Below, one piece after another: positions 12,855-47,775 of a DNA stretch of 64,000 bases. The stretch spans positions 24,566 through 88,565 of IMG/VR virus record IMGVR_UViG_3300028549_001530. One strand, given 5' to 3'. Numbering within the stretch: position 1 is the first letter of the stretch; each line of letters begins with the position of its first letter. This DNA comes from a virus. Lineage: Duplodnaviria; Caudoviricetes. The translations under genes and the position numbers were made by a program. The notes beneath the pieces are model-generated. The model searched no databases, was not told the DNA's origin, and was given only the letters and a program-made list of their open reading frames with translations.

Positions 12855-15800
12855 ATGGAACCACAAGGCATTACAACAGACGTACTTTTAGAAAAATATG
12901 CTAAAGGTAATGAACAAACAGAAGATGAGATTTTTAAGCGAGTCGCTAAAGGTATTGCTCAAGCTGAGAGTGACGTTTACAAAGAGTATGAATTTCTATT
13001 AGATGATGTTATTGTTAGAAAGAATGTATCAAATAAAGATTATTGGGAAAGTAAGTTTTACGAGAATATGAAAGCTGGTGCTGTTGGCGCTGGTCGTATC
13101 ATGTCAGCAGCTGGCACAAATGTTGATGCTACACTTATCAACTGTTTTACTCAACCTGTAGGTGACTCCATCACCTTTGATGATAAAGATGGACATATTA
13201 GTATTTATGGTGCTTTGGCTGAGTCAGCTGAAACTCTACGTAGGGGTGGGGGTGTCGGTTATGACTTCTCTTACATTAGACCTAAAGGTGCTAAGGTAGG
13301 TAAAGTGGGAGCTATGGCTTCAGGACCTTGTAGCTACATGAATATCTTTAATGCCAGTTGTGAAACTATTGAATCAGCTGGTTGTTTTACAGGTGATACT
13401 CTTATCAACACGACAGATGGTCTCTTAAGAATTAAAGACATAGTTGAATCCGATAAAGACTATCAAGCCATTACACATCTTGGTCCTAAGAAAATTACAG
13501 CTAAGTTTAATAATGGTTTTAAAACTATATGGAAAATAGTTACTAAATATGGGTTTAGTGTTAAAGTTACACCTAATCACAAGTTTGCACAATTTGAAAA
13601 TGGTAAAATAGTAACAAAAGAACTTTGTGAGATAATTAAAACAGACAATAATTCACTACTAATTTCTGTACCTTTAAATGAAAAATTAGTACCTAAGCAA
13701 ACAGAAGAAGAAATGTTTGCTTATGTAATCGGAGCTTTTCATGGTAATGGTAGTTGGATAAAAAATGAAAAAGGTTTAATTAAAGGTATTACAATTAGTA
13801 ATAACGTAACTAAATTCAACATAGTAGAAGATATAGCTTTTAAAATGGCAGGGCTTGGGTTTAAAGGGACTCTGACTAAAGTGCCTAATGAAAATACAAT
13901 AACACTTGATTGGTATGATTCAGATTTTTTTAGAAAATTAGAAACATATGGTGTAACTAAAGGAGATATGTCTATTCCTTTTTTTATTTTGGAAGGTTCT
14001 AAAGAAATAAGAGCAGCTTATTTAGCTGGTTTATTTGATGCAGATGGTTATTTTTCTGAGGGTAAAAGTAATATTAGGTTACGTTTAATTACGTATAAAT
14101 TGTTACAAGAAGTACAAACAATGTTGACAAGTCTTGGGGTCATGACTAAATTGTTTTTAGAAAGAGAAACTATAAACAATTGGCAAACATTATATGCACT
14201 CAATATCTATGGAAAATATGCTCAAGATGCATTTTTAAGAACTGTTGGTATGTTTACCACACAAACTCTTTTAAATGTAGCTAGTAAAGATGGTGTAGGT
14301 TATTCTCATAAATGGAAAGACATAAAAGAATTTGGTATTTCTAAATCTACATTCTCTAGATATTGGCCAGGTAACGAACTACGGAATCCAAATATTTCAA
14401 TGAATGCTATAATTAATTCTGGAGTAACCATTCCTGAGTTAGTAAACACCGTGTCTGATACTATCTTATATATTAAAGAATTACCAGAAGAAGAGACATA
14501 CGATCTAGAAGTAGAAGATGTTCATCTTTTAAGTGGTAATGGTATATATACAAGTAATTCTCGTCGCGGAGCTCAATTGGGTGCTTTGTCTATTACACAC
14601 CCAGACATTGAAGAATTCATTACAGCTAAACGCACACCCGGTAGGTGGAACAACTTTAATGTGTCTGTTTTTGTCACAGATGAATTCATGCTCGCTAAAG
14701 ATCAAGACTTAGAGTTGGAACTTACTCATAAAGCTGAGCCAGGAAAATCTTTAGTTGATCAAGGAGCATATAAACGCTCTGATGGTTTATGGGTCTATAA
14801 AAGAGTAAAAGCTAAGTATCTCTGGGATATCATCATGAAGTCAACTTATGACTTTGCTGAGCCTGGTATTTTATTTGCTGACAATATTAACAACGATAAC
14901 AACCTTAGGTATTGTGAATATATTAGGACAACCAATCCGTAAAATCCATGCGGCTATATTGAACAATCAATATAGAAAATCTAATCTGATTGACTTGGAA
15001 ATCCTGAAGAGGATGACAGGGCGGAACTTTTAACTAAGACCGTGAACGACTAAGTGATTAGACATCCTGTAATAAGGATGGTGCGATAGTCTGAACTCTT
15101 GTATAACAAAAGAAGCAAGAGAGGAGATATGAAGAGATCTCCCGCCATTAAATATTTAATGGTCATAAAAGTAACAGATTTGGTGGTGAGCAGCCTTTAC
15201 CTGATTACGGGTGCTGTGATTTAGGTCCTATTATTTTACCTAAGTATGTAACAAATCCTTTTAAGAGTAACGCACAATTTCAATTTGATAAATTTAAAGA
15301 GTCAGTCAGTACTCATGTTAGATTTTTAGATAATGTGTTAGATGTAACTCTATGGCCTTTAGAGAAACAAAGACAAGAGTCTGCTAGTAAAAGACGCATT
15401 GGTGTGGGTTTTACTGGTTTAGCTAATATGTTGTCTATGATGGGTTACGCTTACAACACACAAGAAGCTTTGTTGTTTACAGAAGCTCTTATGAGAACTA
15501 TGAGAGATACCGCTTACAGGGCTTCTGTTGAATTAGCTAAAGAAAAAGGACCTTTTCCTTTACTTGATGTTGATAAGTATTTAGAAGAAGGAACTTTTGC
15601 ATCAAGACTACCTGAAGATATTAAAGCAGATATCCGAACCTATGGTATTCGTAACTCTCATATTCTCTCAATAGCCCCAGTAGGTTGCGTCACACCAGAC
15701 ACTTTGGTAATTACAGAAAATGGTTTACATGAAATATCTGAAATGGGAAAGAATAATAAAGATCAGTGGCAAGATATAAACATCCAGGTCATGACGGACG

Positions 15801-18800
15801 AAGGTTTTAAAACCTCTGATAAGTTTTTTAACAACGGTGTTAAACCAGTTAAAAGAATAACAGATAACTATGGTTATAATATAACTGCTACAGACAACCA
15901 TCAATTAAGAGTCATCACAGAAACAGGTGACTATATTTGGAAAAGGTTGGATCAATTAAAAATTGGTGATATATTGGTTAAATGTGTTAACACATATCCT
16001 AACATTAACACATTACCTATTCCGAATAATGAAACTAATGTAAATCATAAATCTATTAACAAGCTGAAAGAAAATATTGTTTATACTAAAGGGATAGCTG
16101 AACTTGTTGGATTTTTAATGTCTAACGGAAATGTTAAAACAGAAAGACATATTAGACTTTATCACCACATCGATTACGCAGAAAAAACATTTAGTAAAAT
16201 TATTAAAACCTTAGAAGAAGATTTAGGTATAGTAAATTCTAAAATTTTTGTATCAGCTAGAGTTAATAATCCTAATTTAGCTGAATTAAATATATATTCT
16301 AAAGAGTTAGTTACATGGTTAACTATAAACGACTCCATTAAAAAAGGTGCTTCTTACTTAAAAATACCAAAATGGGTATTAAATAGCAGCAGGGAAATTG
16401 TATATTCGTTTTTACGTGGGTTATATGAGGGTGATGGTTCTGGTGGTTTAACTAGTGTAACATACACTTCTATAGATAAACTTTTTATTAATAAATTACA
16501 ACAGGTTTTAGCTTCTATCGGCATTGTAACTAGAAAAGACATTTCAGGATATGGAGGAGCTGTTGGGAGATTTGGAAACAACGACGTTTACAGATTATCG
16601 ATAGGTAACAGAAAAGATAAATTTAAATACTATAAAAATATTGGTTTTATGTCAGATAAGGGTAGTCAAATTTTAGTTAACTACAATGAAGAATTAGATT
16701 ACAGAACTTATTATCAGTCAGTGCGAAAAACCCTAACTAAAGCTTTTGGTTGTATAGATTATAAAAACAAAGTTTATACTAAATTAAAAGAATTAGGTGT
16801 AACAGAAGAAATAATGTTTACAGAAATTATTAACATTGAGGATTTAGAACCAACATTAACTGTAGATATTTCTGTTCCTGACAATGTTACTTATATTGCT
16901 AACAGTTTTGTTAGCCATAACACTATTTCTTTAGCTTTTGCTGACAATGCAAGTAATGGCATTGAGCCACCGTTTAGTCTTGCTTATACACGTAAAAAAC
17001 GTATGCAAGATGGTACTAAACAAGAGTATGCTGTTATTGACCACTCTCTAAGAGTTTACTTAAACACACTAGAGAAAGACTACTCTGATAAACTCTTAAA
17101 TGCTATTGTTAATTATAAGACTACATTTGAACATAATGGTAAGAGTCTCTCTGTTAAAGAAGCAATTCCTAAGAGTATTGTGACCGCTTTAGAGTTAACT
17201 CCTAGTGAACACATTGCGATGATGAAAGTGGTACAGCCCTATATAGATTCATCGCTAAGTAAATGTGTAGCAAAAGGAACACCTATTATCACTAATAAAG
17301 GTATATTACCTATTGAAAGTTTAGGTTATGCTAATATTCCCGATAAGTTTGATAAACCATTAAATGATCTATTAGTACTTTGTCCAGATGGTGAATGGCG
17401 TGAAGTTACTTCTCACTATTACGGTGGATTTAAACCTACAATAACTATTAGTTTAAATAACGGTCAGACTATAGAAGCATCTGAAACACACATGCTAATG
17501 ACAGATAAAGGTTGGGTTAAAATGCCTGATCTTAGTGTGGGTGACTGTATAAAAGTAAGACGAGAAGTTAAAGTTAATTACAAGGGTGGTGCTTTGTTAC
17601 CAACTATTGATTTTTATTGTAATAGCAAAGATTACAATATACCTACACACATGACTCCATCTTTAGCTTTATTTTTAGGAATGATGGCAGCAGACGGTCA
17701 TCTAGAACTAAATACAGGTATGGTAAATATAACTAAAAATGAACCTTTAGTTGGTGTTTTATTTAACAATCTTTCTGTAGAGTTGTTTAACGCTAAAGAT
17801 GTTAAACATTTAGTAGATCCAAGAAACGGTGTTAATTCGTGGTATTTTACATCAAGGTCAGTCTGTAGATGGCTTACAAATCTTATCGGATATAGAGCTG
17901 GTGATAAACATGTACCAACTGAAATTTTATCAGGTTCTTATGATGAAATGAGAATGTTTTTATCGGGACTTAGTTTAGACGGCTATAGAGCAAGACCGGA
18001 TAAAGGTACAGATGCTACATACATTTATTTTGGTAAATCTAAACAGTTAGCTTTAGGTGGTTTTAGTTTACTTAAAGCTATTGGATATAATCCAAGACTT
18101 ACTAGTAAAAAAGTTATTGGATATGACTATATAGCTCACGGAGTTTCTGCTAAAGGTGTTGATTTTTGTATAGAGCAAAGAAAAAACACTGAAGATAGTT
18201 TAGCTGTTGAGTTTATTAAAATACCTGAAGAAGTTTTAAATGGAAAACTTCTATGTAAAGATCCTAATTATTCTACTCATAGAAATTGGCGGCAAAGAAA
18301 TAATACAATATGTAAAGAAAGTCACTACATAAATAATTTTAATAATTATTATGATAAAAATTTTATATACTATAAAATAACAGAAATCACTAATACGGCT
18401 AATGAAATTTATGATATAGAGGTTAAAGATAGTCATGACTATCTTATTGATGGTGTTGTGTCACATAACACTGTTAATATACCAGCAGATTATCCTTTTG
18501 ATGACTTTAAAACAGTATATGATCAAGCGTGGGTAGGTAAACTCAAAGGTGTAGCTACCTATAGACCTAACGATACACTAGGCTCAGTTTTAAGTGTAGG
18601 TGTAGAAGTTAAAGAAGAAGTTAAAGTAAAGGTAGAAACTGATACCACTACTACGACAGTAACTACTATCGTTAAAGAAGAAGATCCTTTCAATACTTTT
18701 ATTATTAAAAGACCAAATGGTACTTTAAGTTCTAGAACTAAGAAGGTTGAATACCTCTCGTCTTCTTTTGTTAAGGATGATTTCTACGTAGGTGTGTCTT

Positions 18801-19279
18801 TTCTAAATGATATTAAGAGACCTATTGAAGTATTCTTTACAGTGTGTCCAGATGGTGTATCACAAGAATGGTTAGACTCATACGCTATTAACTTATCGCT
18901 ACTTGCTCGGGGTGGATTAGATCTTTTCTGTAAAGCTTTAAGAGCTGATCGAAGGATTAAGTCTGACAAAGGGCAAATCCGTTATGGATGGTATACTAAG
19001 TCAGATGGTAGTAAAGTTCCACGTTACCATACCAGTGAGGTAGCTTGTATGGCTTATGCTATTCAAGAGTTACTCGTAGAGGAAAACATTATTACAGAGC
19101 AAGGTTTTCCTATTTATAGTGAAGATGCAAAAGAAGTACATAAATCAACTCAGGTAAGTACAATTCAATCAGGGTTTATTCCTGGTAAACTATGCACAGA
19201 GTGTGGTGCTAACGCGGTAATAAAAAAAGATGGATGTACATACTGTACTAATTGTCATGCTCTGGGAGAGTGTGGTTAA
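12855..19279 (+). CDS. nrdJ: Class II (B12-dependent) ribonucleotide reductase, two exons (12855-14940, 15183-19279), three inteins; about 854 aa mature
   Basis: AGRIM..INCF; RRGGGVG; splicing restores TNP-C-GEQPLPDYGCCDLG; intein removal restores APVG-TIS and SK-TVN; C-terminal TSCPD-like domain and Zn ribbon CTECG..DGC.YC.NC. Confidence 0.93.
13383..14558 (+). mobile_element. Intein 1 in NrdJ (392 aa, LAGLIDADG-type)
   Basis: AG|CFTGDTLI...YLAGLFDADG...GIYTSN|SRRGAQ. Penultimate residue is Ser rather than His. Confidence 0.92.
14941..15182 (+). mobile_element. Group I intron (242 nt, no ORF) in the catalytic Cys codon of nrdJ
   Basis: The 5' exon ends in U (CCG T) and the intron ends in G. 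Joining gives TGT GGT GAG (CGE). Core-like segments gtgaacgactaag and gatagtctg are present. Confidence 0.9.
15686..16921 (+). mobile_element. Intein 2 in NrdJ (412 aa)
   Basis: APVG|CVTPDTLV...FLRGLYEGDG...FVSHN|TIS. Confidence 0.93.
17264..18469 (+). mobile_element. Intein 3 in NrdJ (402 aa)
   Basis: SSLSK|CVAKGTPI...FLGMMAADG...VVSHN|TVNIP. Confidence 0.93.
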
Positions 19280-21087: not shown

Positions 21088-21143
21088 AAAGTAACCTATA
21101 TTGGGAGTCTAGCATAATTGGATGTACTGAGAAAAGGAAAAGT

Positions 21144-21478
21144 AGGATGTTAGCTCAGTTGGTTAGAGCAGGGTACTTAGGAATGGGTCATTAACGAAAA
21201 ATGAGTTGGTAGTCTAACGGCATAACAATTCAATCGAAAGACGTTAATAGTATTTCCGTAAATTCGGTGAACTCTAAGTTAGTATACAATACTAATATGA
21301 CAATGCCGAGCCAAGCCTAATATTAGGAAGGTGTAGAGACTAGAGACGGAATACCTAAAATATAGAAATATATCATGGTGATAGTATAGTCCAGACCACA
21401 AACATATAAAATAAGGTAGTGAAAACTATAGTGGTAAGCATAATGCCTTGGTCACTGGTTCAAGTCCAGTACATCCTA
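21144..21478 (+). tRNA. tRNA with CAU anticodon (Met or Ile2), split by a group I intron; exons 21144-21177 and 21439-21478
   Basis: The spliced sequence folds as AGGATGT/ACATCCT acceptor, GCTC/GAGC D-arm, GGGTA-CT|CAT-AA-TGCCT anticodon arm, ACTGG-TTCAAGT-CCAGT T-arm. No encoded CCA. Confidence 0.9.
21178..21438 (+). mobile_element. Group I intron (261 nt) after U33 of tRNA-CAU
   Basis: Follows U and ends in G. Contains ccgtaaattcggtgaac, gccgagccaagc, gtagagactagagacgg and tatagtcc core segments (IC3-like). Confidence 0.9.
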
Positions 21479-21507
21479 CTTTTCCTTTTTAGAAATAAAG
21501 TTAATTG

Positions 21508-21525: not shown

Positions 21526-21543
21526 CATAAGAGTGTTCATTTT

Positions 21544-21618
21544 ACGCGTGAAGCTTAACTGGATAAGCAGCGGATTTCTACTCCGTAGTTAGTGCAAGTT
21601 CGAATCTTGTCACGCGTA
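21544..21618 (+). tRNA. tRNA-Arg (anticodon UCU)
   Basis: ACGCGTG/CACGCGT acceptor, GCTT/AAGC D-arm, GCGGA-TT-TCT-AC-TCCGT anticodon arm, GCAAG-TTCGAAT-CTTGT T-arm, 7-nt variable loop, no CCA. Confidence 0.85.
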
Positions 21619-21814
21619 AAATGAACATTTATAGTTTTCAGGTAGATCTTCTAGATATGTAATCATCGTTCTTCAGTTGTCTCCCTACGCTGGCATCGTA
21701 CAGCACTTCATATATCTATTCACTTTAAGTGGACTACCTCTTTTACACCAACCCACACATAGAAAGCTCACCACTTTCTATGTGTGTTCTTTTTCATTTC
21801 TCACAAAGGATCAT

Positions 21815-45998: not shown

Positions 45999-47775
45999 AT
46001 GCCTGTTTCATTACAATTGACTAATTTTGATGATGTTTTTGCTAAAGTCCTTACAGAGAAAATTCTAATCAACGATATAGACATTTTTAACACAGAAAAT
46101 AAAGAGCTTCTTGACTCCATCATTCTAAAAAATTACTCAGAAGATAACCTATCAATTATCCCTGCTTGTCAGTGTGGTGAATTAAAAGGAACTTACTACG
46201 TGGGTGAGTTTTGTCATAAATGTAATACACATGTAACTTCTAGCTTAGACGATAACATATCGTTTCTTCTATGGTTAAAACAACCTAACGAAGTAGAACT
46301 ATTTATATCACCTATTGTTATAGCAATCTTATTAGCCAGGTATAAAATCACTAAACCTAATGTACCCTTAATTAAGTACATTATGTTACCTAACTTTAAG
46401 ATTGATAAGAAACAACAAAAGAAGAATTTAAATATACTAGAAAAACTTGATTTTCTTCTTGCTACAAATGGTATTAAAAGAGGTTATAATAGCTTTGTTC
46501 TTAATTTCTTTAAGATCATTGAGATTTTAGAGAATGAATTTATAAAGGAAAAAACTAGTGATTCTTACAATTTCTATAATTTTCTACTAAGGAATAAGTC
46601 AGCTATTTTCAGTAGACATTTACCCTTTCCTAACAAAATCATCTTTGCTATGGAGAGTAACGAGCTAGGTAAATTTATCGATAAAAGTATTTTAAATCCA
46701 ATTAACGTGATCAGGCGTTTAACAGGAATTGATTTATATACTAAAACAAACACAATTAAACAAAACAAGGTAGCTAATAGTTTACTTGATCTTGCTGATT
46801 TTTACAATGGGTACATGAAAACTGTATTCTTTAATAAGAACGGTTTAGTAAGACAGCACATTAGTTCTACTAGAAGTCACTTTACAGCTCGTGCTGTTGT
46901 AACTAGTATACCTGGACCACATGTATATGATGAGTTGTATATTCCTTGGGGTATAGGTTGCACACTGCTTAGAGAACATATACTTAACAGACTTTATAAA
47001 AGAGGGTATACTTATAAGAATGCCATTAACTTTTTGATATATCATAATAAGATTTATCACCCAGTTCTAGATGAGATATTTCATGAGTTGATTACTTCTT
47101 CTGAAGTTGGTATGAAAGGTTTATATAACCGTAACCCAAGCTTAGCTAGGGGTAGTATTCAAACAGTAAGAATTACTAGAGTAAAAACTGATCCTTACGA
47201 TACAACTTTTAGTATGAGTTATTTAATAGCACCAAGTTTTAATGCCGATTTTGACGGTAGATTTTGCTGTCATTGAACTGAGCTACGTATTCAGTTCTTT
47301 AAACTTCTCTAATTGCTGGGAACTCCTGTTAAACGATAGAACTAAAGCGAAGAGTGAAAACTCATGCGTCAATGTTTGAAAATCTATCGGTAGGGACAAT
47401 CAGCAGCGAAGACGCTAAATAACACTGTGAAGTGTGATACGCGTAACGTTCAACGACTATTCCGAAAGGAAGTACACCTAAGTGGGTGGAAATGGAAAGC
47501 TATTCAAAAGTAATTTTGAATAGAAGATATAGTCTGATCTACATAGAAATATGTAGCTGTATTTAAATATACGGGTAAAGTTTAACGACCTTTACTGAAC
47601 ATAATTGGATGAACTCAATCTTACTTTGGTGCTAACTGAGAAGGTGCATAAGAACCTGGATAACTTTGAGCCACACAATAACATTTTATCGTTATCAGGA
47701 ACAAATGAATTCACTAGTAACATTAAGTTTCCTAAGACAGTGATTTCGACGCTGAGTAATTTCATGTCAACTTAA
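45999..47775 (+). CDS. Non-virion RNAP beta-prime N/catalytic subunit (gp55-like), exons 45999-47258 and 47608-47775, 475 aa
   Basis: Zn site CQCG..C.KC; RSHFTARAVV; NRNPSL. Splicing restores NADFDG|DELNLTL. Confidence 0.92.
47259..47607 (+). mobile_element. Group I intron (349 nt, no ORF) inside the NADFDGD motif
   Basis: The exon ends GGT (U) and the intron ends in G. Contains aattgctgggaactcc, aatcagcagcg, gttcaacgacta and aagatatagtctga core segments. Confidence 0.92.

Follow-up and report, generated by a model that had tools for sequence, protein, structure and literature searches.

Is the stretch that default annotation passes over beside a phage tRNA-Arg gene a genuine tRNA gene interrupted in its anticodon loop by a group I ribozyme, and if so, which codon would its product read and what keeps the intron there? 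The locus belongs to an 88.5-kb IMG/VR virus record, estimated by CheckV to be ~44% complete, and "the window" hereafter refers to the whole 64,000-nucleotide stretch of this record that was analysed. A split tRNA gene occupies positions 21144-21478 of the window, where two exons make up one canonical tRNA, and the coordinates given for this tRNA(CAU) gene in a preliminary description proved exact to the base. Judged from the sequence, the locus is very probably a genuine phage tRNA(CAU) gene, likely tRNA-Ile2, split between U33 and C34 by an ORF-less group I intron of the IC3 type. The gene and its surroundings comprise the following features.

21131-21143, + strand: 5' leader strand of an extended acceptor helix, forming 13 contiguous standard pairs with 21478-21490.
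21144-21177, + strand: 5' exon with the acceptor 5' strand, D arm, anticodon stem 5' strand, C32 and U33, delimited by ARAGORN with introns allowed and by the junction test.
21178-21438, + strand: group I intron of the IC3 tRNA-intron type, 261 nt and ORF-less, recognized by RF00028, by our own model R1 and by standard pairs in all helices.
21439-21478, + strand: 3' exon with the CAU anticodon, A37 and A38, anticodon stem 3' strand, variable loop, T arm, acceptor 3' strand and discriminator A.
21479-21490, + strand: 3' trailer strand of the extended acceptor helix, pairing with the leader.
21544-21618, + strand: uninterrupted neighbouring tRNA-Arg(UCU), called by default ARAGORN and by Rfam, the sole other tRNA on the 88.5-kb record.
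21754-21786, + strand: terminator-like hairpin with a T run, downstream of both tRNA genes.

The 5' exon (34 nt) consists of the acceptor strand AGGAUGU, the D-arm stem GCUC/GAGC and the anticodon-stem strand GGGUA, followed by C32 and U33, and the intron terminates in ...GUGGUAAG at 21438. The 3' exon (40 nt) begins with CAUAA and continues through the anticodon-stem strand UGCCU, a 5-nt variable loop (UGGUC), the T-arm loop UUCAAGU and the acceptor strand ACAUCCU to the discriminator A at 21478, with CCA unencoded. Together, the exons fold into a flawless cloverleaf in ARAGORN with introns allowed. The neighbouring tRNA-Arg has a leader (21531-21543) and a trailer (21618-21630) that likewise pair over a perfect 13 bp; in both genes this pairing runs beyond the acceptor stem and takes in the discriminator, and neither gene encodes CCA. 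On these pairings, each tRNA precursor would have a helix of ~20 bp, which could act as a clamp or as a signal for RNase III-like processing.

In its default mode, ARAGORN called only the neighbouring tRNA-Arg at the locus, and Rfam at the gathering threshold reported nothing at the split tRNA. With introns allowed, ARAGORN found the split gene but put the intron after position 37 and called a tRNA-Leu(UAG). Permissive settings of the Rfam group I model RF00028 matched 21198-21400 with 33 bits (E 1e-6), below the gathering cut-off (GA) of 50 bits. Searching IMG/VR with two short intron core strings yielded 39 contigs, with 29 matches lying inside split tRNA genes of several isotypes. A covariance model, R1, was built from 25 related non-redundant viral tRNA introns with the window's own intron left out, and matched 21208-21446 of the window with 137.3 bits (E 5.9e-39). 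RNAalifold predicted 37 pairs from the 25-intron alignment, 30 of them with compensatory changes, and the changes in the relatives fall in P2-P9. The core strings of the window's intron (P3-P8 core, P7 pairing, J3/4, J6/7 and the P4/P6 strands) equal the family majority. A chance match is excluded for the intron. The preliminary description had placed a group I intron of 261 nt right before the CAU anticodon, after U33, and had proposed group I covariance models as a check; this check was run with RF00028 (33 bits, below cut-off) and R1 (137.3 bits), and the placement was upheld by these scores together with the junction test.

In that test, eight placements keeping a 7-nt loop were compared, and U33|C34 alone gives both U(-1) and omega-G, with the loop CUCAUAA and the anticodon CAU; it is the single legal junction. 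The 23-nt sequence of the anticodon arm as predicted after splicing was found in 24 other viral contigs, 23 of which carry it in an uninterrupted tRNA(CAU) gene, and two of these 23 genes adjoin a tRNA-Arg(UCU). In ~110 related introns the internal guide follows the pattern (A/G/U)UG|GG(U/C)N, mostly 5-14 nt into the intron, and its third base tracks exon position 31, with U opposite A and C opposite G; the guide of the window, AUG|GGU, lies at position 8. Insertion after U33 is catalogued in bacteria as fMet.2Ug (the classical case), Met.2Ug and Ile2.2Ug (Williams 2020, bioRxiv 10.1101/2020.01.27.920355).

Which tRNA is interrupted is a harder matter, as telling Met from Ile2 by sequence is acknowledged to be difficult (Silva 2006, PMC1635315). 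The initiator marks (C1xA72, A11:U24 and G29-31/C39-41) are absent, and the gene has A1:U72, C11:G24, U12:A23 and the anticodon stem GGGUA/UGCCU instead, which excludes an initiator. The 3:70 pair is G3:C70, and G3/A3 or C70/U70 were never seen in the Met or fMet genes of 234 genomes (Silva 2006, PMC1635315); G3:C70 is moreover a proven identity element of TilS in Burkholderia cenocepacia (PMC11947777). Over its full length, the tRNA matches E. coli tRNA-Ile(CAU) at 58/74 positions and metT at 54/76, a comparison with a single reference organism, and the T arm is identical to that of E. coli tRNA-Ile(CAU). The best E. coli match of the 3' exon is again tRNA-Ile(CAU), at ~91% over 33 nt and in 5420 of 5426 genomes, with tRNA-Ile annotated among the matches listed. 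The 5' exon was uninformative as an identity query because its D arm is generic. AUA accounts for 27.5 per 1000 codons on the record, i.e., 33% of Ile codons and more than AUG, and AGA for 54% of Arg codons; if the tRNA(CAU) is Ile2, the only two tRNA genes of the record are therefore readers of AUA and AGA. The preliminary description had noted an Ile2-like anticodon arm and had left the choice between Met and Ile2 open; the former is borne out, and the latter is moved towards Ile2 by G3:C70, the missing initiator marks, the E. coli best match to tRNA-Ile and the use of AUA. We thus take the tRNA to be most probably of the Ile2 type, which would read AUA after lysidine modification. No tilS (PF01171) was found on the 88.5-kb fragment, so a host enzyme would be required for lysidine.

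The occurrence of such genes elsewhere was surveyed with one narrow pattern, the family 3' end followed by CAT, which matched 44 viral contigs and at least 120 bacterial species genomes, the bacterial matches listed being mostly from Patescibacteria, Omnitrophota, Planctomycetota and Accumulibacter. The matches listed yielded 125 clean tRNA(CAU) genes interrupted after U33, of which 31 are viral and 94 bacterial. G3 or A3, an Ile2-like feature, is carried by 28 of the 31 viral CAU.2Ug genes, and the 94 bacterial ones among the matches listed divide into 47 Met-like, 37 Ile2-like and 10 fMet-like genes. The split gene might instead encode an elongator tRNA-Met rather than tRNA-Ile2, with the reading of the intron unchanged. 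The anticodon itself is CAU, bacterial Met.2Ug introns exist, about half of the bacterial CAU.2Ug genes collected are Met-like among the matches listed, and the contig is without tilS. The TilS determinants of E. coli, C4:G69 and C5:G68, are also missing, with A4:U69 and U5:A68 in their place, although such determinants are frequent rather than universal and are species-specific (PMC1635315, PMC11947777). Against tRNA-Met stand the absence of G3:C70 from the Met and fMet genes of 234 genomes (PMC1635315), the body and T arm nearer to E. coli tRNA-Ile(CAU) than to metT, and the prevalence of G3 or A3 among the viral genes of this type (28/31). An additional tRNA-Met would also be of little use to a phage, whereas AUA is a much-used codon here and the neighbouring gene reads AGA. 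An elongator tRNA-Met is therefore unlikely, and tRNA-Ile2 remains the preferred identity.

All helices from P1 to P10 can be formed within the intron and its exon borders, and 13 of 13 listed helices, placed by hand with the relatives as a guide, consist of standard pairs only. The structural elements are listed below.

ACU 21175-77 with GGU 21186-88: P1, made of the U21177-G21186 wobble, C21176-G21187 and A21175-U21188.
21183-21188, + strand: internal guide AUG|GGU, with AUG and the 3' exon CAU forming P10, and GGU and the 5' exon ACU forming P1.
CAU 21439-41 with AUG 21183-85: P10.
21190-21248, + strand: P2, 21190-96 with 21242-48, placed by homology; it begins directly after the guide and stops directly before J2/3 UAGUA.
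Within P2, + strand: lineage-specific insert of ~44 nt with a predicted P2a (21202-08/21226-32) and a small UC-GAAA-GA hairpin (21234-41), from the MFE fold.
21254-21351, + strand: P3, 21254-59/21346-51, enclosing P4, P5/P5a, P6/P6a and the P7 5' strand, from covariation and the model alignment.
21264-69/21304-09, + strand: P4, with standard pairs and family covariation.
21273-21300, + strand: P5/P5a, carrying the receptor-like motif UCUAAG..UAUGA.
21310-32, + strand: P6/P6a, with standard pairs and family covariation.
GACUA 21338-42 with UAGUC 21387-91, + strand: 5' and 3' strands of P7.
21353-21379, + strand: P8 hairpin with a GAAA loop and CCUAAA..CAUGG, a variant of the 11-nt tetraloop receptor.
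21381-21391, + strand: J8/7 AUAGUA (21381-86) with the P7 3' strand.
21395-21438, + strand: P9.0 (ACCAC/GUGGU), P9 hairpin with a GAAA loop (21416-29) and omega-G at 21438.

Across the family, the introns end in a conserved GUGGUA(A/U)G. Both P5 and P8 contain a variant of the 11-nt tetraloop receptor, and P9 and the P2 region offer GAAA loops, a placement that presumably resembles that of the Azoarcus intron. The receptor in P8 (21354-21359 with 21374-21378) reads CCUAAA..CAUGG here and CCUAAG..UAUGG in relatives, so the classical G-U pair is replaced by an A/C opposition. Two alternative arrangements were set aside during the modelling. The guide GGUA at 21208-11, to which the unstructured 5' end of R1 was aligned, would form a P1 of 4 bp and no P10; it was rejected because the AAUGGGUC motif at 21182-89 is homologous to the guide of the relatives, lies at the usual distance, provides a 3-bp P10 and is directly followed by P2. 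Both candidate guides yield the identical splice site. A P2 drawn as two separate hairpins was replaced by one long P2 with an inserted branch, which is more stable and agrees with the position of J2/3 UAGUA in relatives.

In the proposed pathway, the intron of the transcript would fold into P1-P9, and the guide AUG|GGU would pair with the last ACU of the 5' exon, with a U-G wobble at the splice site, and with the first CAU of the 3' exon. Free guanosine would attack after U33, and the freed 3' OH of U33 would in turn attack after the terminal G21438. The exons would thereby be joined at the junction ...GGGUACU|CAUAAUGCC..., giving the anticodon loop CUCAUAA. Conversion of C34 to lysidine by the TilS of the host would then let the tRNA read AUA, and tRNA-Ile2 and the adjacent tRNA-Arg(UCU) would serve the AT-rich codon usage of the phage (AUA, AGA).

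Three oddities of the intron bear on how well this pathway may run. The third base of J8/7 is A here and G in ~96% of 131 unique related introns; AUAGUA occurs in no other intron of that set, and it departs from the J8/7 consensus A-A/U-G-G/A-N-A by one substitution, G to A, which could slow or abolish catalysis. P1 has 3 bp, and 4 bp in most relatives, because exon position 30 is U. Azoarcus-type introns also function with a 3-bp P1, and the CAU/GUG P1 of the Azoarcus-type intron is visible in the seed alignment. The 44-nt P2 insert was searched for among relatives and no homologue was found, so its fold is a prediction only. Taken at face value, the G-to-A change at a near-invariant J8/7 position, the P1 of just 3 bp, the unique P2 insert, the Rfam score under the gathering cut-off and the unencoded CCA would suit a decaying relic that splices poorly or no longer splices, with the tRNA gene effectively a pseudogene. 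A dead intron in a dead gene would, however, be expected to bear scattered damage. Here no helix is broken, the two GAAA loops, the two receptor-like motifs, omega-G and the U-G wobble have all been retained, the cloverleaf of the exons is without flaw, and the family model gives a high score (R1, 137.3 bits). Such decay is decidedly unlikely; the intact helices, loops, receptors and exons argue that the intron is still under selection to splice. The J8/7 A, the 3-bp P1 and the P2 insert leave some room for a somewhat weakened ribozyme.

Two of the closest known counterparts of this intron are bacterial. The fMet.2Ug, Met.2Ug and Ile2.2Ug introns share with it the insertion site (CU/...g/CAUAA), the IC3-type core, the (A/U)UG|GG(U/C) guide and the 3' end GUGGUA(A/U)G; it differs from them in sitting in a jumbo-phage genome and in having the 44-nt P2 insert and the unusual J8/7 A. 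The fMet intron of Synechocystis contains a homing endonuclease ORF, in contrast to the window's intron. A further counterpart is the group I intron of Azoarcus pre-tRNA-Ile(CAU) (Ile2.5Ug), reportedly described by Reinhold-Hurek and Shub in 1992. It has the same host tRNA class, subgroup architecture and 3-bp P1 as the window's intron, and the seed alignment adds GAAA tetraloops, receptor motifs in P5/P8 and near-identical P4, P6, J6/7 and P7 strands. The Azoarcus intron is, however, inserted after U36 with the guide GUG/CAU, whereas the window's lies after U33 with the guide GGU/ACU, and the P9 region also differs, with a P9.0 of ACCAC/GUGGU in the window. The intron type (in tRNA(CAU), after U33, with an IC3 core) is thus already catalogued in bacteria, and therefore nothing is new in the mechanism.

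The phage introns of T4 td/nrdB/nrdD, Twort, SPO1 and Bastillevirinae are also self-splicing group I introns, but they reside in protein-coding genes. All phage introns known by 2014 were in protein genes, despite the many tRNA genes of phages (Hausner 2014, PMC3984707), and no earlier report of phage tRNA introns was known to Devoto 2019 (PMC6784885). The "enigmatic" tRNA introns of Lak megaphages (PMC6784885) likewise came to light once tRNA finders were set to allow introns; no group I classification was given for the Lak inserts, whereas the window's is a clear group I ribozyme. In the literature searched, no published group I intron in a phage tRNA gene was found. The view that such introns are rarely described in phages, which the preliminary description had stated, therefore holds for the literature (PMC3984707, PMC6784885) and fails for sequence data, where such genes are frequent.

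Examples missing from the annotation also occur in cultured and public phage genomes. In the cultured Agrobacterium jumbo phage Atu_ph07 (MF403008.1, ~112.9-113.25 kb; 442-803 of the piece examined), a 278-nt intron of the same family divides the tRNA-Leu(UAA) gene (R1, 155 bits), at a place where the record annotates only hypothetical proteins. An uncultured 735-kb phage (LR756501.1; 601-891 of the piece examined; record unannotated) has its tRNA-Leu(UAA) split by a 205-nt intron of the family (R1, 179.5 bits). R1-matching introns were also seen in the crAss-like Kolpuevirus (547-761 of the piece) and Lahndsivirus (533-756), with 66-78 bits and between the genes of a GIY-YIG endonuclease and a replicative helicase, and the ribozyme family thus occupies protein genes as well.

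Megablast of 15 kb against cultured phages gave no match, and a search for syntenic relatives through the neighbouring DHH phosphoesterase found none. The nearest cultured relative is the 200-kb Bacillus jumbo phage AgentSmith, with 58% identity in an RNA polymerase subunit; it contains tRNA-Lys and tRNA-Arg(UCU), and neither a tRNA(CAU) nor introns of the tRNA-intron family were found in it. As AgentSmith is without tRNA(CAU), it provides no intron-less allele at the same locus. The window holds two further intervening elements. A second strong group I intron at 47249-47556 (+ strand; RF00028, 84.6 bits) interrupts an RNA polymerase beta'-like gene; the upstream ORF (45999-47276) ends in an Rpb1 domain 2 match, and in AgentSmith the homologous gene is uninterrupted. 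An intein with a LAGLIDADG endonuclease domain lies in the ribonucleotide reductase large-subunit gene (15335-19279, + strand).

The nearest intron found is about 65-70% identical to the window's. A comparison with bacterial tRNA introns, which had been suggested earlier as a phylogenetic check, was made with a quick maximum-likelihood tree of 105 introns. The viral and bacterial labels change 5 times on this tree and ~15 times in shuffles, and the window's intron falls within a set that comprises 10 viral rows and a single long-branched bacterial one (96% SH-aLRT). The viral copies thus do cluster, and the tree is suggestive of a phage-associated intron lineage; its support stays at that level because the alignment is short, the sampling is pattern-driven and the base composition of the window is unusual.

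What, then, does the intron do for the phage? It contains no ORF, the small flanking ORFs gave no PHROG matches, and no recognisable endonuclease gene was found adjoining it. PrrC-type nucleases cut tRNA-Lys at 33/34, the same position as the insertion site, and an intron there might be kept for protection, with the precursor escaping anticodon nucleases, or for regulation, with splicing gating AUA decoding by GTP level or infection stage. The clustering of viral introns on the tree is compatible with selection and also with simple phage-to-phage spread. Evasion by the unspliced precursor, which the preliminary description had offered as speculation, is weak in mechanism, since splicing leaves the tRNA as exposed as any other and only the spliced form can decode. 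The same intron family furthermore occupies a wide range of tRNAs as well as a crAss-like helicase gene and is equally common in bacteria, and phages commonly have the same tRNA in an intron-less form. A protective or regulatory role is consequently very improbable, and on these grounds the intron is read as a tolerated selfish element. It is best seen as a near-neutral selfish passenger with no function of its own, whose lineage would circulate mainly among phage tRNA(CAU) genes.

The chance that the gene is a tRNA-Leu(UAG) with an intron after position 37, removed by proteins as in archaea and eukaryotes, is practically negligible: ARAGORN with introns allowed gives this output and CUA codons reach 14.4 per 1000, but this junction would put a G ahead of the 5' site and a U at the end of the intron, the inserted sequence is a group I ribozyme, the tRNA is of class I with a 5-nt variable loop that is not Leu-like, the CAU product is found uninterrupted elsewhere, and the default intron placement of ARAGORN is known to need correction (Williams 2020, bioRxiv 10.1101/2020.01.27.920355).

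The main value of the split tRNA(CAU) gene lies in annotation, together with a further data point for group I introns in phage tRNA genes. Standard phage annotation (ARAGORN or tRNAscan by default, Rfam at the gathering threshold) overlooks the gene, and allowing introns mislabels it as tRNA-Leu(UAG); the split genes of Atu_ph07 and LR756501 have been overlooked in the same way. As such genes are overlooked or mislabelled, phage tRNA inventories and the codon-usage arguments built on them are incomplete. The statement, made in reviews, that phage group I introns occur only in protein genes is outdated by this gene and dozens like it in IMG/VR. More tentatively, and in our estimate rather doubtfully, phages may keep a tRNA(CAU) group I intron lineage of their own and ferry tRNA introns across distant bacterial phyla, and the 20-bp leader-trailer clamps may also serve an unusual precursor processing that holds the split exons together. 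If phages do ferry tRNA introns, this would account for their long-noted sporadic distribution in bacteria.
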